Part shown: positions 2,749 through 19,856 of the stretch, piece after piece | How the letters are laid out: each line of letters starts with the position of its first letter | Numbering within the stretch: the stretch's first letter is position 1 | Source of the DNA: a virus | Taxonomy: Duplodnaviria; Heunggongvirae; Uroviricota; Caudoviricetes | DNA length: 64,000 bases | Virus record (IMG/VR): IMGVR_UViG_3300050821_006962 | Coordinates: 27,133 to 91,132 of that record | Direction: 5' to 3' (one strand) | The notes under the pieces: generated by a model | What the model was told of the DNA's origin: nothing | Database searches by the model: none | Seen by the model: the letters and a program-made list of their open reading frames with translations, nothing else | Translations under genes and position numbers: made by a program

Positions 2749-2756
2749 ACAGAAAA

Positions 2757-2836
2757 TGGAAGCCTCGAACACGACGCAACGCGTATGACCTTTCGGTTAA
2801 ATGCCGAATGCTCTTATCGCTCTGAGCTACCGAGGC
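2757..2836 (-). tRNA. tRNA-like gene, possible Lys(UUU) pseudogene
   Basis: Classic GCCTCGG-TA-GCTC D-arm start and a perfect acceptor stem, but T-loop TTGCGTC, A33 and a 3' UUCCA; probably degenerate. Confidence 0.35.
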
Positions 2837-2845
2837 ACAGAAAAT

Positions 2846-2919
2846 TGGTCCCAAGTCGTGGAGTCGAACCACGCCTACCAGTGTTTCAAACTGGGGTGCT
2901 ACCCTCACACTCACAGGGG
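2846..2919 (-). tRNA. tRNA-Phe(GAA)
   Basis: Anticodon stem CCAGT/ACTGG with loop TTGAAAC; T-arm CGTGG-TTCGACT-CCACG; CCA. Confidence 0.55.
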
Positions 2920-2920
2920 A

Positions 2921-3005
2921 TGGAGGAAGAGAACAGAATCGAACTGTCGTCCTTTCAGACGGTCGGGTGTTCGAAACCCGTTGCGAGCCATTCGCACTGT
3001 CTTCC
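2921..3005 (-). tRNA. tRNA-Ser(CGA)
   Basis: Type II; anticodon loop TTCGAAC; long variable arm ACCGTCTGAAAGGACG; CCA. Confidence 0.65.
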
Positions 3006-3010
3006 GTAAA

Positions 3011-3099
3011 TGGCGGACTGGTAGACGAATCGAACGCCCCCGTATCTCTACGAGCCTCCGGGTTCAAACCGGATTGCACACCGTTGCGCGGTACCATCC
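3011..3099 (-). tRNA. tRNA-Ser(UGA)
   Basis: Type II; anticodon stem TCCGG/CCGGA with loop TTTGAAC; long variable arm. Confidence 0.6.
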
Positions 3100-3106
3100 A
3101 TAAACT

Positions 3107-3194
3107 TGGCGGATGATGTGAGATTCGAACTCACTCGGGCTTTCACCCGCTGGTTTAGCAAACCAGTACGACACTCCGGCTTCGCCGACCATCC
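3107..3194 (-). tRNA. tRNA-Ser(GCU)
   Basis: Type II; anticodon loop TTGCTAA; T-arm GTGAG-TTCGAAT-CTCAC; acceptor GGATGGT/ATCATCC. Confidence 0.65.
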
Positions 3195-3200
3195 GTAAAC

Positions 3201-3617
3201 TTAAACTCCTAGCATCTTGCTGAGCTGCGCGACGCGCGACTTGGCTCTTTCCAAATCCCCGCTCGCTGCTTTGAATCCGTGATTCGGCTGAAACCCGTTC
3301 AGCCACTTGCACATCAGCTTGCCCCACAGCTTGCCTTCTTGCTGCGCGCGCCAGCTGTGCGTTGAAATCGTTTCGTCCTGCTGGCCTCGAAGAATCGTAA
3401 CATTGAACCAGATATCGAACGCGACCAGCGCTCGATGAGGCCAACCTTCTTTAGATGCCGTCAACTCTTGCGCCGCGACCTGCTGTGCCCCGGCCCACGG
3501 CACATACAGCCCGCGATATTTGTTAATTACACCAAATATGGTGGATACCGCAATCAAGCCGAGAACCGCACCGCTGAAAATTTCGCCAGTCAGCAACAGC
3601 TTATGAAGTGCGTCCAT
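3201..3617 (-). CDS. small membrane protein (N-terminal TM helix)
   Basis: 138 aa ORF inside the tRNA array; AAGAGG RBS 5 nt upstream of the ATG at 3617. Confidence 0.5.
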   Translation of the reverse strand: MDALHKLLLTGEIFSGAVLGLIAVSTIFGVINKYRGLYVPWAGAQQVAAQELTASKEGWPHRALVAFDIWFNVTILRGQQDETISTHSWRAQQEGKLWGKLMCKWLNGFQPNHGFKAASGDLERAKSRVAQLSKMLGV

Positions 3618-3633
3618 CGGAGCCTCTTAAATT

Positions 3634-3706
3634 GGCAGGAAGCGTAGGAGTCGAACCCACTCTCTCCGGGTTGGAGCCGGATGTGCTACCGCAACACTTG
3701 CAACCT
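3634..3706 (-). tRNA. tRNA-Trp(CCA)
   Basis: Anticodon stem TCCGG/CCGGA with loop CTCCAAC; D stem GTGT/GCAC; CCA; two U.U in the acceptor stem. Confidence 0.55.
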
Positions 3707-3769
3707 GTAGAAAATCTGAGCTTCCTATTTCACCGCGTGGCTGGCCGTGTCACAGCCCTTTGGACTCAC

Positions 3770-3880
3770 GTTGAAATCACCCGCTCCCAGTGGGATTCGA
3801 ACTCACACGCGGACACGATGGACGAATGCTGTCTAGGTCAGCACGTACGGACTAAGCCGCCTTCGTATCTACCTCGTACT
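3770..3880 (-). pseudogene. degenerate tRNA-like element
   Basis: T-arm-like GTGAG-TTCGAAT-CCCAC and an anticodon-like hairpin TGCTG-ACCTAGA-CAGCA (would read CUA), but no matching 5' acceptor strand and no CCA. Confidence 0.25.
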
Positions 3881-3951
3881 AGATGCGCCTTGCCGTTCGG
3901 CGTCATGGTCCCTCGCGTTTTTCAGGCGCGAGAGAAAAGAATGGTGGATGA

Positions 3952-4030
3952 TGAGGGATTCGAACTCTCTATGGCCCAAGGGCCAACAGGGTTACAGCCT
4001 GCCGCGCCACTCCAACTGCGCCGCTCATCC
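3952..4030 (-). tRNA. tRNA-Tyr(GUA)
   Basis: Anticodon loop CTGTAAC; long variable arm TGGCCCTTGGGCCAT; CCA. Confidence 0.65.
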
Positions 4031-4035
4031 AAACT

Positions 4036-4109
4036 TGGAGCCTCGTCGAGGAATCGGACCCCGGCGTCCTCTTTACGAAAGAGGCGTCATACCACTAGAC
4101 CAACAAGGC
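4036..4109 (-). tRNA. tRNA-Thr(CGU)
   Basis: Anticodon stem CCTCT/AGAGG with loop TTCGTAA; T-loop TCCGATT; CCA. Confidence 0.6.
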
Positions 4110-4115
4110 AAAAAT

Positions 4116-4191
4116 TGGAGCACCGCATTCGATTCGAACGAATGTGACCGAGGTACAAGCTCGGTATACTGGACCGCTGTATGAGCAGTGC
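4116..4191 (-). tRNA. tRNA-Thr(UGU)
   Basis: D stem ATAC/GTAT; anticodon loop CTTGTAC; T-arm ATTCG-TTCGAAT-CGAAT. Confidence 0.6.
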
Positions 4192-4192
4192 A

Positions 4193-4266
4193 TGGAGCCG
4201 AAGGCAGGAATCGGACCTGCGCTTGTTCTTTACCAAAGAACTGTTCTACCACTATACTACATCGAC
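4193..4266 (-). tRNA. tRNA-Thr(GGU)
   Basis: Anticodon stem GTTCT/AGAAC with loop TTGGTAA; T-arm GCAGG-TCCGATT-CCTGC. Confidence 0.6.
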
Positions 4267-4275
4267 TCAGAAAAT

Positions 4276-4350
4276 TGGAGCGAAGTGCGGGAAGTCGAAC
4301 CCGCGCCTAGACGTTGGCAACGTCTCGTGCTACCATTATACCAACCTCGC
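4276..4350 (-). tRNA. tRNA-Gly(GCC)
   Basis: Anticodon stem AGACG/CGTCT with loop TTGCCAA; CCA. Confidence 0.6.
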
Positions 4351-4358
4351 CCTGAAAC

Positions 4359-4432
4359 TGGAGCGGCGTCACGGACTCGAACCGAGACGAAGAGTTTGGA
4401 AAACTCCAATGCTACCATTACATCAACACCGC
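4359..4432 (-). tRNA. tRNA-Gly(UCC)
   Basis: Anticodon stem GGAGT/ACTCT with loop TTTCCAA; D arm ATGT-AATGGTA-GCAT. Confidence 0.6.
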
Positions 4433-4440
4433 TCAAAACT

Positions 4441-4529
4441 TGGTTGCGCAGAAGGGATTCGAACCCTTGGTGTCCTTTCGGATTCCAGCTTATGAGACTG
4501 GCGACATCGGCCATCTAGTCGACCGCGCA
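4441..4529 (-). tRNA. tRNA-Met/Ile2(CAU) with a 16-nt variable arm
   Basis: Anticodon loop CTCATAA matches elongator Met; acceptor TGCGCGG/CTGCGCA; unusual 16-nt variable region AATCCGAAAGGACACC. Confidence 0.5.
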
Positions 4530-4538
4530 ACAGAAAAA

Positions 4539-4612
4539 TGGTTGACGAGGAGTGAATCGAACACTCTCTTATTCCTTATCAGAGAATCGTCCTGCCGTTA
4601 GACGACTCGTCA
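4539..4612 (-). tRNA. tRNA-Ile(GAU)
   Basis: Perfect acceptor TGACGAG/CTCGTCA; anticodon loop CTGATAA; T-arm GAGTG-TTCGATT-CACTC. Confidence 0.65.
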
Positions 4613-4621
4613 ACTGAAAAT

Positions 4622-4698
4622 TGGTGGACCATAAGGGACTCGAACCCTCATTATTCCTCGGTGCAAGCGAGGTGCCATCCCAATTAGGCGAACGGCCC
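4622..4698 (-). tRNA. tRNA-Ala(UGC)
   Basis: Anticodon stem CCTCG/CGAGG with loop CTTGCAC; the G3.U70 Ala identity pair is present. Confidence 0.65.
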
Positions 4699-4708
4699 AC
4701 AGTAAAAT

Positions 4709-4784
4709 TGGTACTCGCGGCGGGATTTCAACCCGCGTTCTCGCCTTGAAAGGGCGGCGTCCTAGAGCACTAGACGACATGAGC
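4709..4784 (-). tRNA. tRNA-Glu(UUC)
   Basis: Body closely resembles E. coli tRNA-Glu (TC-GTCTAG...CTAGGAC, GCCGCCCTTTCAAGGCG); T-loop TTGAAAT. Confidence 0.6.
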
Positions 4785-4854
4785 ACTGAAACTTCTTGCC
4801 GCCTCCTGTTATCCCGGCCCCTTTCGGACCCCGGGTTTCCTGAACGGCAAAACT

Positions 4855-4928
4855 TGGTAGCGATGGCGAGAATCGAACTCGCGCTACTTGGTTGAGAACC
4901 AAGCGACCTGCCACTAATCGACAACGCC
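4855..4928 (-). tRNA. tRNA-Glu(CUC) (tentative)
   Basis: Anticodon stem CTTGG/CCAAG with loop TTCTCAA; T-arm GCGAG-TTCGATT-CTCGC; CCA. Confidence 0.5.
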
Positions 4929-4930
4929 AT

Positions 4931-5005
4931 TGGTGCCTCGTGGTGGAATCGGACCACCGTCTCAAGTTTATAAGACTTGGGCCTTCGCCATTAGACGAAC
5001 GAGGA
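4931..5005 (-). tRNA. tRNA-Ile(UAU) (tentative)
   Basis: Anticodon stem CAAGT/ACTTG with loop CTTATAA; T-arm GGTGG-TCCGATT-CCACC. Confidence 0.5.
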
Positions 5006-5013
5006 ATAGAAAT

Positions 5014-5089
5014 TGGTACCCAATCAGAGAATCGAACTCTGCCAGCCTCTTTGTAGGAGAGGTTCATACGACCAGTTTGATAATCGGGT
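5014..5089 (-). tRNA. tRNA-Val(UAC)
   Basis: Anticodon stem CCTCT/AGAGG with loop CCTACAA; acceptor ACCCGAT/ATTGGGT. Confidence 0.55.
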
Positions 5090-5171
5090 AGAAAATTTGG
5101 TGACAGTATTGTGTACCGGGGGAATCACCGTGCCCGCCTCTTGCGTTTTTGCTATCGGCTGAGACTGCCGT

Positions 5172-5339
5172 TTATAAATTCGTTTTGTACCAACGCTGGC
5201 CCATCGAAGACCACTGATAAACAATCTTGCAATCTTCGCACTTCACGACAGTCTCGCGGTCGGGTTGAACTTTACCCTCGACATACTTTCCGCACTGACA
5301 CATCAGACCTACAGACCGTGATGTTTTGTGAAGGCTCAT
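5172..5339 (-). CDS. small Zn-ribbon protein (55 aa, CxC...CxxC)
   Basis: MSLHKTSRSVGLMCQCGKYVEG...KCEDCKIVYQW; shares CxCGK...YQW with the ORF at 6041-6181. Confidence 0.35.
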   Translation of the reverse strand: MSLHKTSRSVGLMCQCGKYVEGKVQPDRETVVKCEDCKIVYQWSSMGQRWYKTNL

Positions 5340-5344
5340 AAACT

Positions 5345-5420
5345 TGGTGCATCGCCGGGGACTTGAACCCCGACCTCAGCGCTTAAAAGGCGCGCCATCT
5401 GCCGCTCGATATCGCAATGC
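5345..5420 (-). tRNA. tRNA-Lys(UUU)
   Basis: Anticodon loop CTTTTAA; T-arm CGGGG-TTCAAGT-CCCCG; CCA. Confidence 0.6.
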
Positions 5421-5430
5421 ACTGAAAATT

Positions 5431-5506
5431 TGGTCGACCGCCTCGGACTTGAACCGAGACCGTGTTCCTTAAGAGGGAATCATTCTGCCACTCGAAATCG
5501 CAGTCG
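5431..5506 (-). tRNA. tRNA-Lys(CUU)
   Basis: Anticodon loop CTCTTAA; T-arm CTCGG-TTCAAGT-CCGAG; acceptor CGACTGC/GCGGTCG. Confidence 0.6.
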
Positions 5507-5514
5507 ACTGAATT

Positions 5515-5586
5515 TGGTTGCGCGATAGCCCGGGTTCTGTCTAGGACGAACATTCCTCTGAGCCAGCTACCCGACCTTCATCACGC
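5515..5586 (-). pseudogene. short tRNA-like element (no canonical T-loop)
   Basis: Good acceptor pairing GCGTGAT/ATCGCGC plus ACCA, but only 69 nt and no TTCGA loop. Confidence 0.25.
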
Positions 5587-5869
5587 TCAACAAGCGCTCC
5601 GGTCCTATTTGCTGTTGCATCCGTGTGGAGTGCCTTCGCTTGAATGACTCAGGTATCTACGCTAACATTTCTGCTGCTCTCGCTGAGTACGAAGCCTTAC
5701 CCGTCCGCTTACGCGGCCCGCAACTTCCACGGCACGATGTTGAGTTATGCCCGGAACTTCCTCCAGCGCTTGCGCGCCAGCGTTCGTCTACGCTACCAAA
5801 AAGTAGGCAGTCTTTCGTTGACGCCAGAACGATTCGGCATTTGTGTCTGAACTGTTTCGCCGACAAACT

Positions 5870-5944
5870 TGGAGAACCGGGTCAGAGTCAAACTGACCAA
5901 TAGCGGGTTTGCAATCCGCCGCCTAATCGATTGGCTTCCGATTC
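5870..5944 (-). tRNA. tRNA-Cys(GCA)
   Basis: Anticodon arm GCGGATTGCAAACCCGC, near-identical to the E. coli Cys arm; discriminator U; CCA. Confidence 0.65.
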
Positions 5945-5949
5945 AAACT

Positions 5950-6035
5950 TGGTGCGCGTCGAGGGAGTCGGACCCTCACACCCAAAGGGGTAGCGCGTTT
6001 TAAGTGCGCCGCGTATGCCATTCCGCCACACGCGC
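5950..6035 (-). tRNA. tRNA-Leu(UAA)
   Basis: Type II; anticodon loop CTTAAAA; T-arm GAGGG-TCCGACT-CCCTC; acceptor GCGCGTG/GACGCGC. Confidence 0.65.
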
Positions 6036-6040
6036 AAAGC

Positions 6041-6181
6041 TTACTTGATGACCTCTAGCCACTGATAGCGAGTTCCGCAAGAGCAAGACGCCCAAACTTT
6101 TCTCATGCGATAGCCTGAGATAAATTTCTTGATTCGTCTCTTTACTCGATTAAATTTTTTACCACAAACGCAGGTCATCAT
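6041..6181 (-). CDS. small Zn-ribbon protein (46 aa), paralog of 5172-5339
   Basis: MMTCVCGKKFNRVKRRIKKF...SCSCGTRYQW; internal start of the 97-aa ORF-track entry, whose longer version would overlap tRNAs. Confidence 0.4.
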   Translation of the reverse strand: MMTCVCGKKFNRVKRRIKKFISGYRMRKVWASCSCGTRYQWLEVIK

Positions 6182-6187
6182 AAAACT

Positions 6188-6271
6188 TGGTCGCCCACCA
6201 CGGAGTCGAACCGTGACGCCCGAAGGCACGGGGTTTTGAATCCCGCGCGTCTGCCAGTTCCGCCAGCAGGC
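6188..6271 (-). tRNA. tRNA-Leu(CAA)
   Basis: Type II; anticodon loop TTCAAAA; variable arm TGCCTTCGGGCGT; T-arm CACGG-TTCGACT-CCGTG. Confidence 0.65.
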
Positions 6272-6279
6272 GATAAAAC

Positions 6280-6355
6280 TTGGAGGGCCACCGGGGAGTC
6301 GAACCCCGCTCCTAGCGTTCGTAGCGCTATGCAATTTCCGATATACGAGCAGCCC
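6280..6355 (-). tRNA. tRNA-Arg(ACG)
   Basis: Anticodon stem TAGCG/CGCTA with loop CTACGAA; T-arm CGGGG-TTCGACT-CCCCG. Confidence 0.65.
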
Positions 6356-6445
6356 TCAGAAATCGGAATCGTGTTTGCTCTGAACCACAGAGATTACCGC
6401 GCCTTGCAGCCGAAGCTGGCGAAGGACTTGACGCGACACAAATAT

Positions 6446-6523
6446 TGGAACACTCGGAGAGATTCGAACTCTCTTTGGTACGGGTTAGAACGCCGTTGGG
6501 ATATCCAGTTTCCCGACGAGTGC
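6446..6523 (-). tRNA. tRNA-Arg(UCU)
   Basis: D arm GGGA-AACTGGATA-TCCC; anticodon TTCTAA; T-arm GAGAG-TTCGAAT-CTCTC. Confidence 0.6.
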
Positions 6524-6669
6524 TCAGAAATTTTCGGGGTGCTGACGTGCCCTTAGACCGGAACCTTTTACGCGGGTCCGCACGGAGTGTGTCGCGAATC
6601 ACTTACGCGCTGGCTTAGGCAAGAAGACAGTACTCGTCCGTTCTCTGGCTCACGGAAGCCTTTGCAAAT

Positions 6670-6783
6670 TTACAGCGCGATGATTCGCGCGATGATTGGA
6701 TACTTACGGCAAACCCACAGCAGCACAAAAGGCGCTGCGGATGTGAACGAGACCGCAATCAGATACTTCTCGAAGAAGGTCAT
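6670..6783 (-). CDS. 37-aa hydrophobic membrane peptide
   Basis: GGGAGG RBS 5 nt upstream of the ATG at 6783; MTFFEKYLIAVSFTSAAPFVLLWVCRKYPIIARIIAL. Confidence 0.4.
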   Translation of the reverse strand: MTFFEKYLIAVSFTSAAPFVLLWVCRKYPIIARIIAL

Positions 6784-6844
6784 GAGAACCTCCCTTCTTA
6801 AATTTGGGCCGAGATTACAGCTCGACCCGCTCTACATGCAAACT

Positions 6845-6929
6845 TGGTACCCCGCACAGGAGTCGAACCTGCACGACCGAAGTCACTGGTTCCTAAGACC
6901 AGCGCGTCTCCCAATTCCGCCAACAGGGC
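6845..6929 (-). tRNA. tRNA-Leu(UAG)
   Basis: Type II; anticodon stem CTGGT/ACCAG with loop CTTAGGA; variable arm TGACTTCGGTCGT. Confidence 0.6.
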
Positions 6930-6930
6930 A

Positions 6931-7020
6931 CTGAAAATCTGCCGAGCGTTCTACCATTAAACTACGTGCGAGCAAGCTCACACGGCGGGACTCGAACCCG
7001 CACCTCTCAGCTCATCTGCC
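6931..7020 (-). other. tRNA 3' half followed by a tRNA 5' half (permuted order) joined by a perfect acceptor hairpin
   Basis: Minus RNA reads ...CUGAG-AGGU-GCGGG-UUCGAGU-CCCGC-CGUGUGA-G-CUUGC-UCGCACG-UA-GUUU-AAUGGUAG-AAC-G-CUCGG-CAGAUUUUCAG. The acceptor strands CGUGUGA/UCGCACG pair 7/7; GGCAGAU is duplicated in both halves. Confidence 0.4.
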
Positions 7021-7030
7021 ACCCGAACAA

Positions 7031-7360
7031 ATTGGTGGACTTAATTTCCGGGCGGATTTTATCAGCGCGAGCCGCCGTCCCGCATAGGGCACCTTTAGTG
7101 CCGAGTCCTATTGCCCCAAACCAGCATGCGAGGCCCCGTCAGGGAGCTACCCCGATAGGTTGATGGACTCTGTCGCGACAACATCTCCGTGGTAGGCGTG
7201 CCTTGACGCCTCGTTCCCCTTCGCACTTTCGTGCTCCGGTGTCCGTTCGCTCCCTAGAGAGCCGCGACCTCGCGCGCCCGAAGGCTACAGCCCCGAAGGG
7301 CCTGCGCTGTCCGCGACCCTGCAAGGGTCCGTAGTGGATAACCGAACGGCTCCACAAAAT
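7031..7360 (-). ncRNA. 330-nt GC-rich structured non-coding segment ending ...GUCCACCA
   Basis: No credible ORF; at least 6 perfect hairpins (GGCAC-CTTTA-GTGCC, GACCCT-GCA-AGGGTC, GGCGT-GCCTT-GACGCC, CCCGAAGGG x2, palindrome TGTCGCGACA); sits inside the tRNA operon. Confidence 0.35.
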
Positions 7361-7439
7361 TGGTCGAGAAAGCTGGATTCGAACCAGCGTGCCCTCGCTT
7401 CCGAAGCGAGTGAGATAAGCCAAACTCCTCTATTTCTCG
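7361..7439 (-). tRNA. tRNA-Pro(CGG)
   Basis: Perfect acceptor CGAGAAA/TTTCTCG; anticodon stem CTCGC/GCGAG with loop TTCGGAA; T-arm GCTGG-TTCGAAT-CCAGC. Confidence 0.6.
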
Positions 7440-7449
7440 ACAGTAAAAT

Positions 7450-7537
7450 TGGCTGGGGCAACAGGACTCGAACCTGTAATGAGCGCTAGCTCTGCCTGAT
7501 TAACAGTCAGGTGCTGTACCAATTGAGCCACACCCCA
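7450..7537 (-). tRNA. tRNA-Asn(GUU) with a 17-nt variable arm
   Basis: Anticodon arm CCTGA-CTGTTAA-TCAGG is identical to the E. coli Asn loop; extra hairpin CAGAGCTAGCGCTCATT in the variable region; discriminator G. Confidence 0.5.
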
Positions 7538-7546
7538 GTAGAAAAA

Positions 7547-7621
7547 TGGCGGAGATAACGGGAATCGAACCCGTACTTCATCCGTGACAGGGACGTGTCG
7601 TTACCAACTGACCCTATCTCC
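7547..7621 (-). tRNA. tRNA-Asp(GUC)
   Basis: Perfect acceptor GGAGATA/TATCTCC; anticodon loop CTGTCAC; T-arm ACGGG-TTCGATT-CCCGT. Confidence 0.65.
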
Positions 7622-7630
7622 GCTGAAAAA

Positions 7631-7719
7631 TGGTCGAGATAGAAGGATTCGAACCTCCGGGGCGTTGCCGCACTGGTTTCCAAAACCAGACCGCTACCAA
7701 GCTACGGACCTATACCTCG
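7631..7719 (-). tRNA. tRNA-Pro(UGG) with an expanded D region and a 14-nt variable arm
   Basis: Aligns with E. coli Pro(UGG) (AGCTTGGTAGCG, CTGGT-TTTGGAA-ACCAG, GGAGG-TTCGAAT-CCTTC) but carries insertions. Confidence 0.45.
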
Positions 7720-7833
7720 ACAGAAAATGTATACATCGTAGCAAACGTTTCGAACCGGACGCTTTCGCCACAACGGCAGGCCACGCAATGTAGCCTATGG
7801 TGTTTCACCCTTACGGATGACTTTGACATAGAC

Positions 7834-8031
7834 TCAGCCCACGCTTCTCGCCGAATTAGGCTCGCGAACCTGTAGCGTCTTTTCGGCAATCAGCAAGTAA
7901 ACTTTCGCGCTTTCCTCGACGTCGCCACTTAAGGCTAGGTGGACTATCTGCACGGTACTGACCCGTCGCTGGGCCAAGAAAATTATTGGTTCATTCATAA
8001 GTCGGAAAGCCAGTCGCAGCGGATGCGCCAT
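7834..8031 (-). CDS. hypothetical protein (65 aa)
   Basis: ORF track only; weak RBS. Confidence 0.25.
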   Translation of the reverse strand: MAHPLRLAFRLMNEPIIFLAQRRVSTVQIVHLALSGDVEESAKVYLLIAEKTLQVREPNSARSVG

Positions 8032-8053
8032 ACATTACCGTCCCAGTGCCCCG

Positions 8054-8125
8054 GGAGCTGGTGGGAGTCGAACCCACTCTGCCGCTTTGGTGGACTGTGA
8101 ACCAGCCGACCGCCCCGTGTTCATC
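8054..8125 (-). other. tRNA-like 3' element resembling a tmRNA 3' end (no full cloverleaf)
   Basis: GUGGG-UUCGACU-CCCAC-CAGCUCC, compared with E. coli ssrA GCGGG-UUCAACU-CCCGC-CAGCUCC-ACCA. Only about 40 nt upstream is pairable and no CCA is encoded. Confidence 0.3.
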
Positions 8126-8157
8126 ATGCGGTGATGAGCCGCCCACGGTTTGAACTC

Positions 8158-8349
8158 TTAAACCTTTCTGTGCTCGATTGGCGTGAGGTCTAACGTCGTC
8201 TCCGCGCCGCACTCGCAAACATATCTGTTGCCGGGTCGTCTCCGAACCGGGTCCCCGCATTCGGGGCATGAAATCAGCCGGGGTGGTTGCCCGACTCCGT
8301 TCTTCGCCGGAATCCATATTTCCGTTTCGAACGTTTCCATTGAACCCAT
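8158..8349 (-). CDS. Zn-ribbon protein (CPECG...CECG)
   Basis: ...LISCPECGDPVRRRPGNRYVCECGAETTLD; ATG at 8349 or 8340 lies inside or just after the -10 box of promoter 8348-8376, so it is possibly leaderless. Confidence 0.5.
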   Translation of the reverse strand: MGSMETFETEIWIPAKNGVGQPPRLISCPECGDPVRRRPGNRYVCECGAETTLDLTPIEHRKV

Positions 8350-8376
8350 CCTACCACACTTTCGAAACCTTGTCAA
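8348..8376 (-). promoter_or_regulatory. sigma70-like promoter (TTGACA-17-TAGGAT)
   Basis: Minus strand TTGACA (8371-8376), 17-nt spacer, TAGGAT (8348-8353). Confidence 0.5.
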
Positions 8377-8464
8377 GCTTTATTTTCGGGGCAGCTTTGG
8401 CTCGTGCTAGCTGCCCCTTGGAGGTGCAACTAATGCAAGGTGATGCTACTGCGATTCGAGAACC

Positions 8465-8493
8465 AGTCTAGCACAGTTCTCGAAACTTGTCAA
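8465..8493 (-). promoter_or_regulatory. sigma70-like promoter (TTGACA-17-TAGACT)
   Basis: Same architecture; the flanking sequence TTTCGAgAACtTGTCAAG is repeated from 8348-8376. Confidence 0.45.
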
Positions 8494-8508
8494 GTACTAT
8501 TTTAAACT

Positions 8509-8585
8509 TGGGGTGAAGTACGGGGGTCGAACCCGTGCCGAGGGATTCACAGTCCCCCGTGCTACCTTTACACTAACGACACCAC
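8509..8585 (-). tRNA. tRNA-His(GUG)
   Basis: Anticodon loop CTGTGAA; extra 5' G (G-1) opposite discriminator C73 as expected for His; T-arm ACGGG-TTCGACC-CCCGT. Confidence 0.6.
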
Positions 8586-11191: not shown

Positions 11192-12049
11192 TTACGCCTT
11201 CTCTATAGCGTTGACGCAAGATTTCCAATCGCTGACTTTAATAATCAAATTCATTAAAGCGGAAATATCAACCACAAAGCCTGCTTGCTTTACGAACTCC
11301 GGGTTCTCCAACAGTTTCAAAATAAGAGAAAGAGAATCACGCAACGCTTCTTTAGCTGCGGCCTTTTCCAACTGCTCAAGACGGCGCTCCAGCTGTGCGG
11401 TCTCTTCAGTGCGGCGCGCAGTCGAGAGTGCGGCGAGACGAGCCTCGACTTCGTCAAGCTGGCTGTAAACGCCGGAAAGCTTCTTGTTGACCCACTCGTG
11501 GCCGACTGGCAATTCGGGTTTGAAGCCCGGTGCCGCACAAGCGGCGGGACGCATAAACTTCTTGGCGCGCTCCAATAGCTCGTTCTGGAATAATTCCAAA
11601 TTCTCGATGCGACGCAGCAAACGAACGTCCGCAGTCATCAAGCTTTCGACGTCGGTCTTTACAGCGCTGAACCCCTTATCGGTCGAGGCTGCCAATTTCT
11701 GCAACGATACAACGTTTGACTGGTCGCGAACCGTTTGACGCATCTCGCGGTCGTCGTTTTCTTTCTTGACCTGTGCAAGGCTCGCGGCGATTTGCTCGGA
11801 GCGCTGGAAAGCTTGGACACGGAAGTCTTCGACTGACTTGTGTGTATCCGCAAATTCTTTTAGAAGCGCTGCGTTAGCTCCCTTCTGGAAATCCAGCTTC
11901 GCATTCAAATCGGTGTAAGCGACTGCGAAAGTCTCGCGAAGAATGGAAAGTTCGTCCGCGTTCTCACGGGTCTGCTTGCGAACCTTGTGCAGACTCTTCT
12001 GCAAGCTCGATACTAGTCCCGTTAGGGATTTCAAAATTTCGCTGCTCAT
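11192..12049 (-). CDS. coiled-coil protein
   Basis: 285 aa, heptad-rich, Glu/Leu/Lys/Ala. Confidence 0.5.
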   Translation of the reverse strand: MSSEILKSLTGLVSSLQKSLHKVRKQTRENADELSILRETFAVAYTDLNAKLDFQKGANAALLKEFADTHKSVEDFRVQAFQRSEQIAASLAQVKKENDDREMRQTVRDQSNVVSLQKLAASTDKGFSAVKTDVESLMTADVRLLRRIENLELFQNELLERAKKFMRPAACAAPGFKPELPVGHEWVNKKLSGVYSQLDEVEARLAALSTARRTEETAQLERRLEQLEKAAAKEALRDSLSLILKLLENPEFVKQAGFVVDISALMNLIIKVSDWKSCVNAIEKA

Positions 12050-12058
12050 TGGGTACTC

Positions 12059-12760
12059 CTACTTTCCGCTTTTGCGGGATTGGGTCTTTCGAATCTTATA
12101 GCGTTTAGGTGCTGTGCGAGATATTCCCAGTTGGGCCTTTTGGCCCTCGGGTATTGCGATGCTGTCCTGCACAACGACGGTTGCTTGCAATACTTTCTTT
12201 GCGCGCTGACGCACGTAGCGGAACTTCAAGCCGCGCTCGATAATCGTATCTGGTGCCTCAATCGGGTCCGGGTGCGGAAGAACCGCGCCGAGGATTGGGT
12301 CTCCGGGTTTGATGCGCCCATCTTCCAGACCTCGCTGAATATAGGCCCAGAACAGGTCGCTCGATTCTTTGATGCACTGACGATACGCGTCCGTGTAGGT
12401 CGGCACCGGGCCGGGGTCTTTTCTGTTAGCGTACAACTCGGATGACGCCTTCGTGTTCGTGCTCGGCAGGTCGTACAGCTCGTTGAACGCGGCGGTCAGC
12501 TCTTTCTCGTCGGAGCGAATCTTCAAACCGCAGTTGTAAAGGCACTTGATTTCGGTCACGCCTGTCGGGAACGTGAAGATGCTTAGGTTGTAGTCCTTGC
12601 CGGGTCCCGCGAGGGAGCGCGGCGTGCGCCCGCCCTTCAAGTGGGTGCAGGGAAACCGAAGCTTGCTCTGGAAACGCTGGAGCACGCTCGCCAGCGTGTA
12701 CTTGCCGGGGGCGACCCTCTGCAACTGCTCGACTAGGAACTGCTCAACCGTTTGCGTCAT
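12059..12760 (-). CDS. hypothetical protein
   Basis: 233-aa ORF; last gene of the leftward block. Confidence 0.5.
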   Translation of the reverse strand: MTQTVEQFLVEQLQRVAPGKYTLASVLQRFQSKLRFPCTHLKGGRTPRSLAGPGKDYNLSIFTFPTGVTEIKCLYNCGLKIRSDEKELTAAFNELYDLPSTNTKASSELYANRKDPGPVPTYTDAYRQCIKESSDLFWAYIQRGLEDGRIKPGDPILGAVLPHPDPIEAPDTIIERGLKFRYVRQRAKKVLQATVVVQDSIAIPEGQKAQLGISRTAPKRYKIRKTQSRKSGK

Positions 12761-12884
12761 TGGGTCCTTCTTGTTCCGGCCAGCGGACGTTTATGTCCGG
12801 AGCCGGGATTGGATTTCAAACTTCTGGGCTAACTCGGTTTTATTCGGTAAACTCTGTTAGCGTGGGCCAGCCATAGTCTACCCT

Positions 12885-14092
12885 CCTCGGGGATGGGAAA
12901 ACTTTTTCCTCCGATATCGGAGGCACTTTTTGTCACTGTGACACTTTTTGTCTCCGATATCGCTATCGGGGTGTAACGTGACGCCGTAGCCGGATTGGCC
13001 GATTGCCACGAATGCGACCACCGTCCCACAAAGGGGCCTTGGGGCGCTCGCCACCCGGCAGGCTGCCGGGTCCTCGGTTTGGCCCCCGAATTGCTGGGGG
13101 AGCAAACGAATTGCCAAAGACTATCTTGTTGAAAACAAAGCTCTTAACGTTTCGCCCGAGGTTCGCTGCCAGCCTGCGCCGACAGGTCATTGCGCGTTGC
13201 GATTCCTTGCGGGAGGGTCGCGCCGAGCGCTTGCGGTTAATAGGGCATTAATCGCCAAACGCCGAGAAACAGTCTAAGCTGCTGATTCTACGGCATTTAG
13301 CGTTTGGCAAGCGGCTTGCTGGGGGAGCAAATTCGTTGCCAAACTTGAAATTCGTTGAAAATAAAGGACTTGCGCGATAATTTTGCGCTCATCGGAAACG
13401 GCTGGCAAACTACTCATCCCAACCGTCATTAGCTTGTGCGTTGTATCTCATTTGTTTTGTTCATGTTACAGCGAGTGTCGAGGCGTTGAAATTGGGTTGG
13501 CGCGATACGCGCCGTCACCTGACAAGGTCACTGAAGATATGACAAAAGAAGCGCGGTTAGGGTCGTGAGTTGGTTTGCATCTCGTAACTCGTTGATTCTA
13601 TTCAAAGCCAAGCTCGCGCTGCCCACACGTTGGCAAGTGCCCAAATATGGTCAGATTGGCGTCGAGGCCGTCACGCGGATTCTATCATACTATCATAAAA
13701 TATGCGAAAGGGAATTAAGTCGTTTAAATTGATGTGATTACGAGCGAAAAACAGCCGAAAACACGAGAGGTGTATACCCCTAGCGAGCCTTGGACCGATA
13801 TCGCTTCAATTGATACCGATATCGCAGGAAAAGATTTTCCTTATATATGATTTTTCATATAATTGAATTCACTTCATCGTAGAGAGGGAAAAAGTTTTCC
13901 TCCGATATCGCTAGCTGTTGGACCGATATCACTAAGTCGCGTCGTGGGGGGTACACTTTGCGAATTTTGACCTTAAAATGGCATCTAACTCTATCAATAT
14001 AAAGGACTTGATTCCAAAATGTGGATTTTATGATAGTTATGATAGTATGATAGCATTTTCCGCTTGACAGTGTGATATCGGTCTGTTACACT
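12885..14092. repeat. repeat-rich divergent control region (candidate origin or regulatory hub)
   Basis: Seven or more CCGATATCG boxes; 12-bp palindrome TCCGATATCGGA (12909-12920); direct repeats CACTTTTTGTC x2 flanking inverted repeat GTCAC-TG-GTGAC; two copies of a 60-bp repeat CTGGGGGAGCAAA...TTGCCAAA (13091-13150 and 13316-13375); inverted repeat CGCCAAACGC...GCGTTTGGC (13253-13310); TATCATA x2 (13682-13697) inverted relative to TATGATAG x3 (14030-14054). Confidence 0.6.
14065..14092 (+). promoter_or_regulatory. sigma70-like promoter with a GATATC box in the spacer
   Basis: TTGACA 14065-14070, 16-nt spacer gtgtGATATCggtctgt, TACACT 14087-14092; the ATG of the next gene lies 7 nt downstream (leaderless?). 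Confidence 0.5.
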
Positions 14093-14098
14093 GGTTGG

Positions 14099-14569
14099 AT
14101 GACTGAATCAACCATCTTGACAGCATTGGATGTGCGCAGCTGGCTGCGTCCTTGCGTCTACATCGCTCGCCTCGGCGACCGTGTCCAATACATCGGCCAA
14201 TCATCCCAAGGCATCCTGCGACCGCTGGACCCGCAACACCATGTTATATCCTTGCCAACATTCGAGTATGATACTCTGGAGATAATCTGGCTCGAATCAG
14301 AGGAGCAAGCTCTCGCTCTGGAAAGCGAGTTGATATTCAAACACTCTCCACCGTTCAACACTCGCGGCGTTGCGCCTCTGGACACAGCAGGCGACGCGTG
14401 TCGACCGTGTTTGTGGTTTGACCCAAGCAAGCGCGATTATGTTGTTCTCGCACGCCGCACTCCATTCGAAAAGCGAGGCGTGGAGATATTGCGCACCAAG
14501 GATAGAGCAGAGGCAAAGCAAAGGCTTCGCGACACGCTGAAAGCAGAGAATATAAAAGCGCGGTACTAG
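14099..14569 (+). CDS. GIY-YIG domain protein
   Basis: VYIARLGDRVQYIGQS...E...N motif pattern; 157 aa. Confidence 0.55.
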   Translation: MTESTILTALDVRSWLRPCVYIARLGDRVQYIGQSSQGILRPLDPQHHVISLPTFEYDTLEIIWLESEEQALALESELIFKHSPPFNTRGVAPLDTAGDACRPCLWFDPSKRDYVVLARRTPFEKRGVEILRTKDRAEAKQRLRDTLKAENIKARY

Positions 14570-14611
14570 TACGTTTTTCTTCTTGACATCATTCGCTCCA
14601 TATACGATACT
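14564..14611 (+). promoter_or_regulatory. early promoter cassette copy 1 (TACTAGTACGTTTTTCTTCTTGACA + GATACT)
   Basis: Palindrome GTACTAGTAC, T-tract, -35 TTGACA 14583-14588, 17 nt, -10 GATACT; the ATG at 14618 is 7 nt downstream. Confidence 0.55.
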
Positions 14612-14617
14612 CGTCGC

Positions 14618-16045
14618 ATGGACACCACACTCAAGACCTACCGCATCCCCGAGGCCAACCTATCCACCCTCCAGTCGCGCATGACGCAGTTGGCGCGCCG
14701 CTGCACCCGCATCAAGGTCGAAGCACCCAAGCTCACGGTCGGCGCGTTCGAGGACATCAAGTACCGCAACGAGGAAGGCTTCGACCGCGTGCGCCGCGTG
14801 TACACTGTCACCTTGGAATCGGCTGGACGTCCCAAGATAAACGGCTATGAATTCGCCGCCGTGATATCGCCTGTCACTGATGAAGATGGCAAGCTCATCG
14901 GCAACGTTATGCGCCGCGTCCCCGGATTCGAAGGCGATATCCCCACCAAGTTTCGCGAGGCCACTAATTACTGCGACCACTGCAAGGCAGCGCGTTATAG
15001 ACTGGAAACGTTTGTCATCCACAGCGACGCAGGCTTCCGGCAAATTGGCCGGAACTGCCTTGCAAATTATCTTGGACTCACCGACCCGAGCACGCTGGCT
15101 GCTATCGCGGAGATTTTGATTGACGCTGATGAGCTTGCTGAGATGTCAGAGCGCGAAGGCTTCGGCGGTGGCTCAGTAATGGAACGCATTCCTATGGATG
15201 ACGTGCTGACCGTAGCAGCCTCTGCAATCCGCTTGTATGGCTGGCTCTCGAACAAGAGCGCGCAAGAACACGGTAAGACCTCAACGTCTGGCCGCGTGCG
15301 CGAATGGATATTCGGAAATGCGAAAGACCGGGAGCGCTTCGAATTTCCGCTGGTCGCATCCGATGAAGACAAGACCCTCGCAGCCAACACCTACGAATGG
15401 CTGCAATCGCTCTCTATCCACACACAAGACGATTACCGATACAACCTCGCACTCCTCGCGCAGTCTGTATCAGTCAGCAGCAAGAACTTCGGCATCGCGG
15501 TCTCTGCCATCAATGCCTACAGCAAGGAAAGGGAATTTGAGATTCGCCGCAATGCCCGCATCGAGTCTGACAGCAAGTCAAACTTCATCGGCACAATCGG
15601 CGAGCGCATCACTTTGGAAAACACCACAGTGCTGTATCACACCACGTTCGAATCACAGTTTGGCGTCTCCCACTTCTACAAGATGAAGTCCGGCGACAAT
15701 ATCATCGTGTACTTCGCCTCGACCGAGATGTTTGAGCAGGGCGAGGTCATCCCACAAATGACCGCACGCGTGAAGAACCACGAGAACCGCGTGGATAAGT
15801 ACAACCCGGAAGGCGTGAAGCAGACCATTATCACGCGCGCCACGCTGCCCAAGCCTCCCAAGGCCCCGCTGACACCGGAGCAGAAGACAGCCAAGAAGGC
15901 CGCTGCGAAGCTTCGCCGCATCGCTAAGACTCTGCCGCACATTGCGGAGGATATCAGGCTCGGCAAAGGCGACAATGACGATTACACCGCTTGGAATATC
16001 GTGGTCGACTTGGAATGGCAGATTAAGAGGGAGAATAAGCTATGA
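14618..16045 (+). CDS. large early hypothetical protein (475 aa)
   Basis: Long ORF with no recognisable motifs; first long gene of the early operon. Confidence 0.6.
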   Translation: MDTTLKTYRIPEANLSTLQSRMTQLARRCTRIKVEAPKLTVGAFEDIKYRNEEGFDRVRRVYTVTLESAGRPKINGYEFAAVISPVTDEDGKLIGNVMRRVPGFEGDIPTKFREATNYCDHCKAARYRLETFVIHSDAGFRQIGRNCLANYLGLTDPSTLAAIAEILIDADELAEMSEREGFGGGSVMERIPMDDVLTVAASAIRLYGWLSNKSAQEHGKTSTSGRVREWIFGNAKDRERFEFPLVASDEDKTLAANTYEWLQSLSIHTQDDYRYNLALLAQSVSVSSKNFGIAVSAINAYSKEREFEIRRNARIESDSKSNFIGTIGERITLENTTVLYHTTFESQFGVSHFYKMKSGDNIIVYFASTEMFEQGEVIPQMTARVKNHENRVDKYNPEGVKQTIITRATLPKPPKAPLTPEQKTAKKAAAKLRRIAKTLPHIAEDIRLGKGDNDDYTAWNIVVDLEWQIKRENKL

Positions 16046-16254: not shown

Positions 16255-16451
16255 TGGCATACGAAGCACTCAAGAAGTGGGCTGACGATTACACCGCATG
16301 GCTGCATAAGATGGCAGCACAGCGCAAAGCCTGTCTCGCGTGTGAGCAAGATGCGTATCTCTCCGACCCTAACACAGACTTGGATGCCGCAATGATGGGC
16401 ACGCGCTGTGACCCGCACGGCGGACCATATTGCAAGAAGGTGAAAGCATAG
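16254..16451 (+). CDS. hypothetical protein
   Basis: ATG overlaps the upstream TAA. Confidence 0.4.
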   Translation: MAYEALKKWADDYTAWLHKMAAQRKACLACEQDAYLSDPNTDLDAAMMGTRCDPHGGPYCKKVKA

Positions 16452-16500
16452 TATTAGTACGTTTTTGTTGTTGACACCTATTCCGGATTTTGGGACACTA
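16449..16500 (+). promoter_or_regulatory. early promoter cassette copy 2
   Basis: TAGTATTAGTACGTTTTTGTTGTTGACA, 17 nt, GACACT. Confidence 0.5.
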
Positions 16501-16515: not shown

Positions 16516-16722
16516 ATGAGCTACCAGTGGGACGAAGTAAAGCAGCAAGCGGTTCGAGTGCCTTACGATACTGACCGCGTGGTAGACGAAGCTTGCGTTT
16601 GCGGGCATTATCTCAGCGAGCACAAATCCCGAGGTCTCTGCGAGTATTGCAAGAGCGACTGCAAGGCATTTCGTTTCGTGGCTTTCATCTTAGCTAGCGA
16701 CGTCGAACCTGCAAAACAATGA
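16516..16722 (+). CDS. Cys-rich small protein
   Basis: GGAGG RBS; CVCGHYLSEH...CEYCKSDC. Confidence 0.5.
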   Translation: MSYQWDEVKQQAVRVPYDTDRVVDEACVCGHYLSEHKSRGLCEYCKSDCKAFRFVAFILASDVEPAKQ

Positions 16723-16868
16723 CACCTCTCCTCATCCGTCTCGCCCCCGAGCTATTAACGCGTTTACGCGCGCTAGCGGATGAGAAGGGTGTATCGGTCG
16801 CGTGCATCATACGCAGCATACTGGAAGATTGGTTTCGAAAGGCCGAAGATGCAAAAGTTAAGAGTTAA
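16719..16868 (+). CDS. ribbon-helix-helix (CopG/Arc/ParD-like) DNA-binding protein, 49 aa
   Basis: PELLTRLRALADEKGVSVACIIRSILEDWF is a classic RHH pattern; ATGA-coupled; below the ORF-track size cut-off. Confidence 0.5.
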   Translation: MTPLLIRLAPELLTRLRALADEKGVSVACIIRSILEDWFRKAEDAKVKS

Positions 16869-17593: not shown

Positions 17594-17784
17594 TGAAGCT
17601 CCTCGCAAAAATAGGCCACGCCTTGCATATCGCGCTTCTCAGCGTGCTGTTGAGCGCGTTTATCCTCGGCGTGGTCCTGATGCTGGCGATGCTCGTACAA
17701 AGCCGCGTCGAGGCATACAAGCGGTGGAGCACCGACACGCCACCACCCGCAGTCAAGATTGAGCAAGACAACGAACAGTACTAG
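17593..17784 (+). CDS. small membrane protein
   Basis: ATGA-coupled; two TM helices. Confidence 0.5.
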   Translation: MKLLAKIGHALHIALLSVLLSAFILGVVLMLAMLVQSRVEAYKRWSTDTPPPAVKIEQDNEQY

Positions 17785-17830
17785 TACGTTTTTGTTCTTG
17801 ACGCGGTCCTCGGGCTGTGAGAGAATTTGA
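17779..17830 (+). promoter_or_regulatory. early promoter cassette copy 3
   Basis: TACTAGTACGTTTTTGTTCTTGACG, 17 nt, GAGAAT. Confidence 0.5.
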
Positions 17831-18759: not shown

Positions 18760-18954
18760 ATGACCCTGATTGTACCCACGGCATACCGCCGCAACGCGTT
18801 CCGGGAGCGCAACGAGAAGCTTAACACGACCGCATCCGATGCGGCAGAGGTCACACTGACCTGTCTGCGATGCTTCCGGCCCGCGAGTATAGGCACGCGC
18901 TGCGATGATTGCAGGATGGCGCGCGTGAAAGCGAACGCGGGGAGGAAGCGCTAG
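18760..18954 (+). CDS. Zn-ribbon small protein (CxxC...CxxC)
   Basis: ORF track. Confidence 0.45.
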   Translation: MTLIVPTAYRRNAFRERNEKLNTTASDAAEVTLTCLRCFRPASIGTRCDDCRMARVKANAGRKR

Positions 18955-19003
18955 TACTAGTACGTTTTTGTTGTTGACAAGATTCGGAGGCCATGAGACA
19001 CTC
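18952..19003 (+). promoter_or_regulatory. early promoter cassette copy 4
   Basis: TAGTACTAGTACGTTTTTGTTGTTGACA, 17 nt, GACACT. Confidence 0.5.
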
Positions 19004-19020
19004 TACTCATGGAGGCAACA

Positions 19021-19325: not shown

Positions 19326-19787
19326 ATGGACCTCTCTGCCGCACACTCGCTCATCTGGAAAGCGATGCTCGACCACAAGCTGTTTGACCTCGGCTGGTCC
19401 TTCGAATGGGACCACGCAAAGACTCGCAGCGGCCAATGCCGCTTCGCAGACCGCACGATTAGCATGTCCAAACATTATGCGATAATGGAGGAGGAATCCG
19501 AAATTCGCGATACCATCCTGCACGAAATTGCGCATGTGCTAGTCGGCCCCGGACATCATCACGATTACGTATGGAGACTCAAGGCCCGCGAAATTGGCGC
19601 GAAGCCTCTGCGATGCTCCCAGAGCGAGAAGCGGGTCCCCGGTAACTACATCGGCAAGTGCGCGGGCTGTGGCGTGGAAGTACATCGGTACAAGAAGCCG
19701 CGCATGCTGAACGTCCCCGGCTGGTATCAGCACACAGCATGCAAGCGCATGGGCAAAGAATCAAAAATTGAATGGACGGTAAAATAG
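19326..19787 (+). CDS. SprT-like Zn metallopeptidase-domain protein
   Basis: HEIAH (HExxH) plus a C-terminal CxxC...Cxx zinc ribbon. Confidence 0.55.
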   Translation: MDLSAAHSLIWKAMLDHKLFDLGWSFEWDHAKTRSGQCRFADRTISMSKHYAIMEEESEIRDTILHEIAHVLVGPGHHHDYVWRLKAREIGAKPLRCSQSEKRVPGNYIGKCAGCGVEVHRYKKPRMLNVPGWYQHTACKRMGKESKIEWTVK

Positions 19788-19835
19788 TACTAGTACGTTT
19801 TTGTTCTTGACACCCGGAGCGAATCGCGGTACAGT
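19785..19835 (+). promoter_or_regulatory. early promoter cassette copy 5
   Basis: TAGTACTAGTACGTTTTTGTTCTTGACA, 17 nt, TACAGT. Confidence 0.5.
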
Positions 19836-19856
19836 TAAAGCATGGAGGACGTGATG

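Follow-up and report, generated by a model that had tools for sequence, protein, structure and literature searches.

The closest described counterparts of the locus reported here are the immI region of phage P22, in which Arc and Mnt act on the divergent promoters Pant and Pmnt, and the CopG/omega autoregulators. The locus, referred to as the hub, is a non-coding gap of 1.3 kb (positions 12761-14098) in a stretch of 64,000 nucleotides (the window; positions 27,133 to 91,132 of the IMG/VR record IMGVR_UViG_3300050821_006962) from a virus of the class Caudoviricetes. As in these known systems, the hub appears to combine a small ribbon-helix-helix (RHH) protein with short palindromic operators on or between promoters, sites that are spaced by whole helical turns for cooperative binding, and a regulator transcript that originates from the controlled promoter. 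The hub differs from P22 immI in having seven boxes over 1.2 kb (up to ten in relatives) rather than one or two, and in that its family has repeatedly swapped the operator centre together with the protein strand that reads it. In addition, the RHH gene of the window lies 2.6 kb downstream, and binding to the hub is predicted from the sequence.

Three other groups of systems resemble parts of the hub. Relatives of phage T5 carry a conserved untranslated region of 1.2-1.7 kb that is full of nested repeats and palindromes, and the T5-type injection stop region contains pairs of DnaA boxes in conserved inverted repeats within the long terminal repeat (bioRxiv 10.1101/866236). This region is the nearest described look-alike, both phages being rich in tRNA genes and having an A1-type gene; the hub, however, has no DnaA boxes, is situated at a divergent promoter junction beside the tRNA array, and is 11 kb away from the A1-like gene. 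The ColE1 RNA II region, the T7 primary origin and T4 oriF/oriG resemble the hub in that one or more promoters precede a structured transcript, with an AT-rich element some 500 bp farther on, although the hub has neither sequence similarity to them nor an Rfam match, and an origin role is only a rival reading of it. The -24/-12 promoters of RpoN (sigma-54), which require a signal-activated host ATPase, have GG and GC doublets at a canonical spacing that the hub reproduces, with conserved repeat and palindrome blocks 60-130 bp upstream, the usual location of enhancers.

On balance, we judge it somewhat probable that the hub is a two-layer early-control region of a family of tRNA-rich soil phages, in which RHH feedback would be combined with sigma-54-type promoters making a structured RNA. 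The first layer draws on comparative evidence, and the second is inferred. In the first layer, divergent sigma-70-type promoters would fire leftward to the left genes and an array of 29 tRNA genes, and rightward to the early operon, whose message would start without a leader at a promoter termed P_R (14064-14092). The RHH protein of 49 residues (16719-16868, plus strand), made from the rightward transcript, would bind CGATATCG palindromes spaced 21 or 43 bp apart on one helix face, namely in the P_R spacer, on both flanks of an AT-rich centre and at the left border, and its accumulation would switch off early transcription. In the second layer, two palindromes of a core at 12975-13640, P1 and P2, would be -24/-12 elements of the sigma-54 type. 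Rightward starts near 13106 and 13331 would be made by the sigma-54 RNA polymerase of the host once a host enhancer-binding protein has activated it. The resulting transcripts, folded into conserved hairpins, would extend for about 500 nt as far as the AT-rich centre; the RNA may serve as a regulated early-gene leader, or it may provide a primer or R-loop in replication. The inverted TATCATA/TATGATA repeats would be expected to bind a second protein.

Operator-like boxes and the RHH protein

Thirteen further distinct hubs, all from uncultured phages, were recovered by protein-guided and pattern-guided scans (IMG/VR, soil metagenomes and one contig of a metagenome-assembled genome; designated L001 and so on). 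Most of the distinct sequences among 37 metagenome pattern hits were unrelated (mainly coding tandem repeats) and were dropped, and L017 and L010 are the same phage. The hub layout is common to the window and the 13 relatives, with the order of elements kept in all of them, and this conservation excludes the reading of the repeats as junk. The repeats are not conserved as exact strings: GATATC, TATCATA and CACTTTTTGTC are missing from five loci obtained via flanking proteins, and in several relatives an equivalent palindrome stands at the place of GATATC. CGATATCG is shared with the window by L043, L027 and L025, which came later from the pattern scan.

The motif CCGATATC occurs 12 times in the window, compared with 1.3 occurrences expected from shuffles. 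Eight strand hits, corresponding to seven distinct sites, fall within 12911-14081 (GATATC at 12913, 12956, 13797, 13818, 13904, 13925 and 14074; five exact CCGATATCG and two CCGATATCA variants), in line with the at least seven boxes of the original prediction. The only exact CGATATCG of the window outside the hub is at 5407, and four GATATCGG sites beyond the hub were rejected as boxes, being within coding sequence and lacking the full box. The candidate RHH operators at the left border are O_L1 (12910-12921), which is the 12-bp palindrome TCCGATATCGGA noted earlier, and O_L2 (TCCGATATCGCT, 12953-12964) at a distance of 43 bp. On the right, O_R1 (13796-13803) and O_R2 (13817-13824) are 21 bp apart, as are O_R3 (13903-13910) and O_R4 (CGATATCA, 13924-13931). 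The last candidate, O_R5 (TGATATCG, 14073-14080), is located in P_R, a plus-strand promoter of the form TTGACA-17-TACACT with TTGACA at 14064 and TACACT at 14092; its full box (14072-14083) lies inside the 17-nt spacer, where a box had already been placed.

Relatives with a palindromic box carry 3-10 copies of one 8-bp palindrome each, usually as gCAAAC-NNNNNNNN-GTTTGc, and the palindrome differs between phages. The box is CGATATCG in the window, L043, L027 and L025, TGATATCA in L017 and L003, CTATATAG in L004, and CGCATGCG in L001 and L011. The spacings between boxes are 21-22, 31-32 and 43 bp, implying that the sites are on one helix face. In every box-bearing phage that reaches that far, the rightmost box is inside the spacer of the TTGACA promoter heading the rightward operon; this arrangement is kept in seven relatives (L043, L027, L025, L017, L004, L001 and L011), and the contig of L003 ends before the position.

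The RHH protein varies along with the box. Its N-terminal strand reads PLLIRL, PTLIRL or PTFIRI in the four phages with CGATATCG, RVLLQF with TGATATCA (L017), PFLLHM with CTATATAG (L004), and KLDIRL with CGCATGCG (L001 and L011), so that four box types correspond to four strand types across nine phages, as a correlation only. At aligned strand position 7, Arg accompanies an outer C:G pair, Gln an outer T:A pair, and His CTATATAG. Pairing of Arg with C:G and of Gln with T:A at this position is the pattern expected for direct base contacts in RHH-DNA complexes. Six of the eight family members match Pfam RHH_1 (best E 7e-6), and the nearest solved structures in a profile search are those of ParG (E 0.011), ORF56, VapB26 and CopG (E 0.01-0.5). 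In five relatives the RHH gene is at most ~700 bp downstream of P_R.

Because of this covariation and the conserved box in the promoter spacer, the GATATC boxes are most likely the operators of the RHH protein. We conclude that P_R is probably under its feedback control, and that, in the window and L043, the action of this protein would extend to the left border (12912, 12955), where a leftward promoter is expected. A master regulatory region with operators for a dedicated regulator, one of the two roles originally suggested, therefore appears to describe the hub well on the comparative evidence of box, strand and promoter spacer. As for the two regulators named at that time, the RHH protein is the best candidate, whereas the neighbouring helix-turn-helix (HTH) protein could not be linked to any hub site. 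Three observations weigh against the proposal. The window RHH protein itself is below the Pfam threshold (E 0.003-0.008), its gene is separated from P_R not only by distance but also by at least one further promoter, and the left operator pair is found in the window and L043 only.

An ATG at 14099 implies a leaderless message at P_R. The -10 hexamers of P_R and of the promoter of the RecT-like gene end 5-6 nt before the ATG (14087-14101 and 14607-14620), so neither message would have a leader. P_R of L004, L027 and L001 has this geometry as well.

On the left, a candidate minus-strand -10 element, TAGACT (12875-12880), has a GGAAAACTTTTTCC palindrome at its -35 position; this promoter is proposed from the sequence, and relatives have a leftward TTGACA-17-TACAAT at the equivalent border (8449-8421 in L001). 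The 29 tRNA genes of the window are on the minus strand at 2499-8582. All ten relatives with enough leftward DNA also have a tRNA array on this side of the hub, oriented as in the window (seen, for example, in L001, L004, L006, L017, L025, L027 and L048), and from this shared side and orientation the leftward promoter of the hub probably drives the array.

The series CGATATCG/R, TGATATCA/Q, CTATATAG/H and CGCATGCG/D-R constitutes a natural series of swaps between operator and reading strand. It offers a test set for DNA reading by RHH proteins and for the diversification of regulatory specificity in related phages.

The conserved core and its sigma-54-like palindromes

The core between the two operator groups comprises ~650 nt (12975-13640) and, with its sigma-54-type palindromes and a covarying hairpin, is the most interesting content of the hub. 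Candidate reading frames in it (13003-13732) have no third-position bias, with 17/19/26 and 28/28/30 substitutions over the three codon positions as compared with 6/6/21 in the neighbouring gene. Since substitutions are even over codon positions, the core is considered non-coding. Small encoded proteins were rejected for the same reason, and six-frame similarity was present in all frames. The central 300 bp are ~72% identical among the first five loci. In a comparison of the window with L043 over 12643-13732, identity is ~96% at the start of the left gene and ~89% in the right operator cluster, but only 54-75% in the core between them; the core thus seems to have been exchanged as a module.

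The most conserved part of the hub is a repeated palindrome of the general form (G)TTTGGCA-N5-TTGCT-GGGGG-AGCAA-N5-TGCCAAA(C), of which three relatives have three copies. In the window it is present on the plus strand as P1 (TTTGGC-N-TTGCT-GGGGG-AGCAA-N-TGCCAAA, 13077-13118) and P2 (GTTTGGCAAGCGGCTTGCT-GGGGG-AGCAAATTCGTTGCCAAAC, 13302-13344). The original prediction took this element, together with covarying hairpins, for a plain 60-bp repeat in two copies. Two copies do exist, and the repeated unit is ~70 nt long (13077-13146 and 13302-13372), composed of a 42-nt block (79% identity) and a 24-nt block (71%). The repeated unit also holds a hub-specific motif M, copy 1 (TTGAAAACAAAGCTCTTA) being at 13129-13146 and copy 2 (TTGAAAATAAAGGACTTG) at 13355-13372, both on the plus strand; relatives have it in both orientations. 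As it is present in the hub only, M was dropped as a genome-wide phage promoter.

Each arm of the palindrome resembles a sigma-54 promoter, scored here as matches out of 12 to the bacterial consensus TGGCACG-N4-TTGCW. Both arms of P1 score 10/12. The plus arm of P2 is the best -24/-12 match, reaching 11/12 in the window and 12/12 in L001, L011, L014, L025 and L034, and its predicted start is near 13331. Over all hubs, the GG-to-GC spacing is invariant in 31 of 31 copies and the plus-arm mean is 10/12. The copy nearest the early genes scores 10-12, with five perfect copies, while the mirrored arm never exceeds 10. The four arms of P1 and P2 are the only zero-mismatch TGGC-N7-TTGCT sequences in the window. 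Conserved TCGTTGC repeats and a TTAAT palindrome occur 60-130 bp upstream of P2. The TTGCG and (A)ATCGTTGC direct repeats at 13190-13212 (plus strand), which alignment places ~105-130 bp upstream of P2, are a candidate enhancer or other protein-binding site. The best-supported reading of these data is that P2, and less surely P1, would act as a rightward-firing sigma-54-type promoter.

Several observations speak against a sigma-54 promoter. A 10/12 match is expected ~11 times per 64 kb by chance, and since such a match alone is not rare, the weight of the argument is on the conservation and the perfect copies. No GAFTGA-type or related activator motif was found in six frames of the window and ~480 kb of loci (some of them unrelated contigs). 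Unlike RpoN promoters, the hub element lies within a palindrome with a weaker site facing it on the other strand, and an invariant GGGGGAGCAA follows the -12 element. Neither the mirrored arm nor GGGGGAGCAA is a feature of sigma-54 promoters, which suggests an additional or different reader of the element, be it a protein or a hairpin.

It is accordingly conceivable, if rather improbable, that P1 and P2 are not promoters but palindromes or hairpins read by another phage or host protein, as double-stranded sites, extruded hairpins or RNA hairpins, and that the consensus match is convergent. Both arms and the GGGGG centre are invariant in the 31 copies, whereas the neighbouring hairpins covary freely; the element folds stably (mean z -2.8), a plus-strand hairpin is compatible with the G-U pairs of the outer P2 stem, and the missing activator gene points in the same direction. 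The sequence itself is difficult to accommodate, however. Ten fixed positions are those of the sigma-54 core at its exact spacing, several relatives have the full TGGCACG-N4-TTGCT, and the plus arm of the last copy is always the best match, an asymmetry that a symmetric site would not need.

Downstream of P2, the clearest structural signal is hairpin H5 (13494-13519, plus strand), which consists of GGGUUG, a stem of 5-7 bp with a loop of 3-6 nt, and (C)GUCACC, and is followed by a second GTCAC at 13527-13531. H5 folds in all 13 relatives. Changes on both sides are seen at five of its nine pairs, 95.7% of cells are paired, and its covariation score was reached by none of 500 shuffles; shifting the 3' partners by between one and three columns reduces pairing to 26-53%. 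The plus strand is favored by four G-U pairs and an invariant U-G, all of which would become mismatches in the opposite strand. A second plus-strand hairpin or palindrome (13236-13262) has an invariant TTAAT-N5-ATTAA, and its outer pairs covary (three of ten pairs changed on both sides), and a small, weakly supported plus-strand hairpin with an A-rich loop (13372-13388) is clearly stable in 6 of 13 relatives, where its energy is at most about -4 kcal/mol and its stems differ. The support for other hairpins is partial. The best-supported reading here is that the sequence downstream of P2 would act as a structured plus-strand RNA, presumably extending toward the AT-rich centre.

The helices of P2 are invariant without covariation, so structure is not readable there and the element is conserved as sequence. 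In the G+C-rich block at 12975-13076, where alignment of the 13 relatives reveals near-invariant TTGCCACG and GGGGCG motifs, convincing covariation was not found. The original prediction also listed a 9-bp inverted repeat with a 38-nt loop in the hub; the repeat is present (GCCAAACGC at 13254-13262 and GCGTTTGGC at 13300-13308), and its arms are 37 nt apart. The structural case is weakened by RNAalifold, which yielded local hairpins and no global fold for three blocks on both strands, by the restriction of covariation to H5 and the outer pairs of the TTAAT hairpin, and by the fact that the transcript end of the core could not be defined.

More speculatively, and with considerable doubt, the phage family may have recruited host sigma-54 through two or three tandem palindromic promoters that make a ~500-nt structured RNA ending in the AT-rich dyad. 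In that event the promoters might answer a host stress or nutrient signal, and the RNA might gate early transcription or prime replication. If the core layer is true, the phage could tie its early programme, tRNA supply or replication to host physiology. No description of sigma-54 promoters carried by a phage was found in the literature searched by full text; within that literature, such a conserved control module dependent on sigma-54 would have no phage precedent, and its transcript would be a new structured phage RNA. As a practical matter, two GCTGGGGGAGCA motifs ~225 bp apart provide a compact marker for finding this group of soil phages.

The AT-rich centre and the question of an origin

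The right half of the hub is organized around an AT-rich palindromic centre (13844-13871, TATATGA-tttt-TCATATA with TGAATTCA), which forms its dyad centre, contains the AT-richest 50 bp, and recurs in L043, L010/L017, L027 and L025. The AT-rich span noted before is borne out by a G+C content of 31% at 13800-13899. Facing box sets flank the centre, as originally described: two copies of CTATCATA (13682-13697) and three of TTATGATAG (14028-14053), both given on the plus strand, make up the left and right 20-nt arms of an inverted repeat that are 95% complementary and 338 nt apart. The left boxes correspond by position to the AATTGTGTCATA boxes of relatives. Together these elements define a nested dyad (13680-14056, centred near 13864) that had been missed.

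This organization raises the possibility, which we regard as real but unlikely, that the hub is a replication origin, either solely or overlapping a control region. Unwinding would then take place at the AT-rich centre, a phage initiator such as the primase-polymerase/helicase encoded at 30838-32880 would recognize either the TATCATA/TATGATA sets or the GTCAC sites, and transcripts from P1 or P2 would activate or prime replication as in the ColE1, T7 or T4 origins. In ten of 14 hubs the AT-richest 50 bp (74-84% A+T) are 458-549 bp right of P2, a conserved distance; the box sets flank the AT-rich centre in inverted orientation in both the window and L001, the right half has nested dyad symmetry, and the G-T-tolerant hairpins could equally form in single-stranded DNA. 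Also consistent with an origin, the hub is the only large non-coding gap: besides pieces of the tRNA array and the window start, 12761-14071 is the sole stretch of at least 400 bp without an open reading frame (ORF) of at least 90 residues, which upholds the earlier description with the window start as an additional exception.

The cumulative GC skew, a check proposed with the original prediction, has its minimum between ~12 and 16 kb. The turn is not independent evidence because it coincides with the switch in gene orientation: leftward ORFs reach 12760 and large ORFs are mostly rightward from 14099 on, so the hub does separate leftward and rightward gene blocks. Against an origin, the window has four DnaA boxes (TTWTNCACA), which is the chance level, and none within 12761-14098. 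No initiator gene is adjacent, as the primase-polymerase/helicase gene is 17 kb from the hub and the neighbouring 233-residue protein has no recognisable fold. The most numerous repeats are located on promoters and track a repressor rather than an initiator. With boxes that vary in number and sit on promoters, the iteron- or DnaA-type origin of the original prediction is not supported.

A role in DNA handling, as a T5-like injection-stop region, a packaging site (cos/pac) or a partition site of the plasmid type to which the RHH protein would bind, seems very improbable. The phage does encode a T5 A1-like protein, the repeat-rich untranslated region of T5 relatives resembles the hub (bioRxiv 10.1101/866236), and ParG is the closest solved relative of the RHH protein. 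Nevertheless, the hub lacks the DnaA box pairs by which the T5 region is defined. The scanned ORFs of the window did not reveal a terminase gene, and the ten flanking proteins scanned had no partition ATPase domain, which also counts against the partition site proposed earlier. Contig ends inside the hub were considered as genome ends; as that of L005 falls exactly at the repeated P element and that of L003 among the repeated boxes, both coincide with internal repeats and are read as assembly breaks. Four further ideas were dropped for want of support: GGGGCGAC as a lambda-like cos end had no support, N4-type hairpin promoters would need a giant virion polymerase and the window has no ORF above 680 residues, an attP site was set aside with no integrase among the ORFs scanned, and the likeness of the TATGATAG repeats to a Fur box is not kept in relatives, which have TGTCATA instead.

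The hub contains further repeats. GGAAAA-NN-TTTTCC palindromes, previously overlooked, occur three times (GGAAAACTTTTTCC at 12896-12909, GGAAAAGATTTTCC at 13827-13840 and GGAAAAAGTTTTCC at 13887-13900), and all copies of the window are in the hub. The second copy occupies the -35 position relative to a TATAAT at 13858-13863, which may belong to a rightward promoter. Two copies of CACTTTTTGTC (at 12924 and 12942) surround the palindrome GTCACTGTGAC within 12924-12952. These direct repeats had been recognized before, with a palindrome given as GTCAC-TG-GTGAC that reads GTCAC-T-GTGAC; in the alignment, a GTCAC(n)GTGAC palindrome is found at the left border of several relatives. A terminator-like hairpin with a T-run lies on the minus strand at 13756-13781, between the right operator cluster and the core, and could stop leftward transcripts from the AT-rich centre after ~75 nt.

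Gene context and minor features

The rightward genes of the window encode a RecT-like protein, the primase-polymerase/helicase, a UvrD-like helicase, the T5 A1-like protein and RtcB (60397-61704). Identity of the A1-like protein (24941-26581) is 35% with A1, a pre-early protein of the T5 group, and 45% with a Pseudanabaena phage Pan1 protein; its N-terminal part gives a weak Fis-type HTH match. The RHH gene has a zinc-finger-like protein and the HTH-like protein as neighbours. Homologues of the left gene number 62. Searches of the locus against known sequences gave no matches: none by DNA similarity against 50,697 phage records, none by tblastn for the left gene adjacent to the hub against phages, and none to the covariance models of Rfam 15 over 12000-15000 at E up to 1. 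At the gathering score, Rfam detected nothing except tRNAs in 11 relatives.

The first rightward gene (14099-14569, plus strand) has a GIY-YIG-like motif by eye (YIARLGDRVQYIGQS ... ESELI ... PPFN), and its product has no Pfam or PHROG match. Similar first genes are present in L027, L004 and L038 and not in L001 and L006; one possibility is that a mobile nuclease-type gene has inserted behind P_R. Some relatives have inserted DNA between the left gene and the core, at 9700-9840 in L004 and 480-840 in L005 (locus coordinates). The former contains five copies of TTTGTGGGTTCCACATA and a small ORF, and the latter one extra ORF.

One of the relatives, L048 (CABMCB010000038.1, 36.7 kb), which was the sole hit in the genome collection, has a full hub and tRNA array and is part of a bin labelled 'uncultured archaeon LFW-28'. 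Mis-binning of a phage contig is the most likely explanation. In this relative, TTGGCCCCACAAT takes the place of TGTCATA as the second box type.

Beyond the hub, a 26-nt module of the form GTACTAGTAC-GTTTTT-sTTs-TTGACA is repeated five times in the rightward region (14563-14612, 16451-16500, 17778-17830, 18954-19005 and 19787-19840). Each copy is followed by a -10-like hexamer at 17 nt and then by a gene start, and one copy carries GTATTAGTAC. Judged by this arrangement, the module resembles a recurring early-promoter cassette in which a palindromic site is placed near -50. In L001 and L002, TAGTACTnTAGTAC precedes the RecT-like gene.

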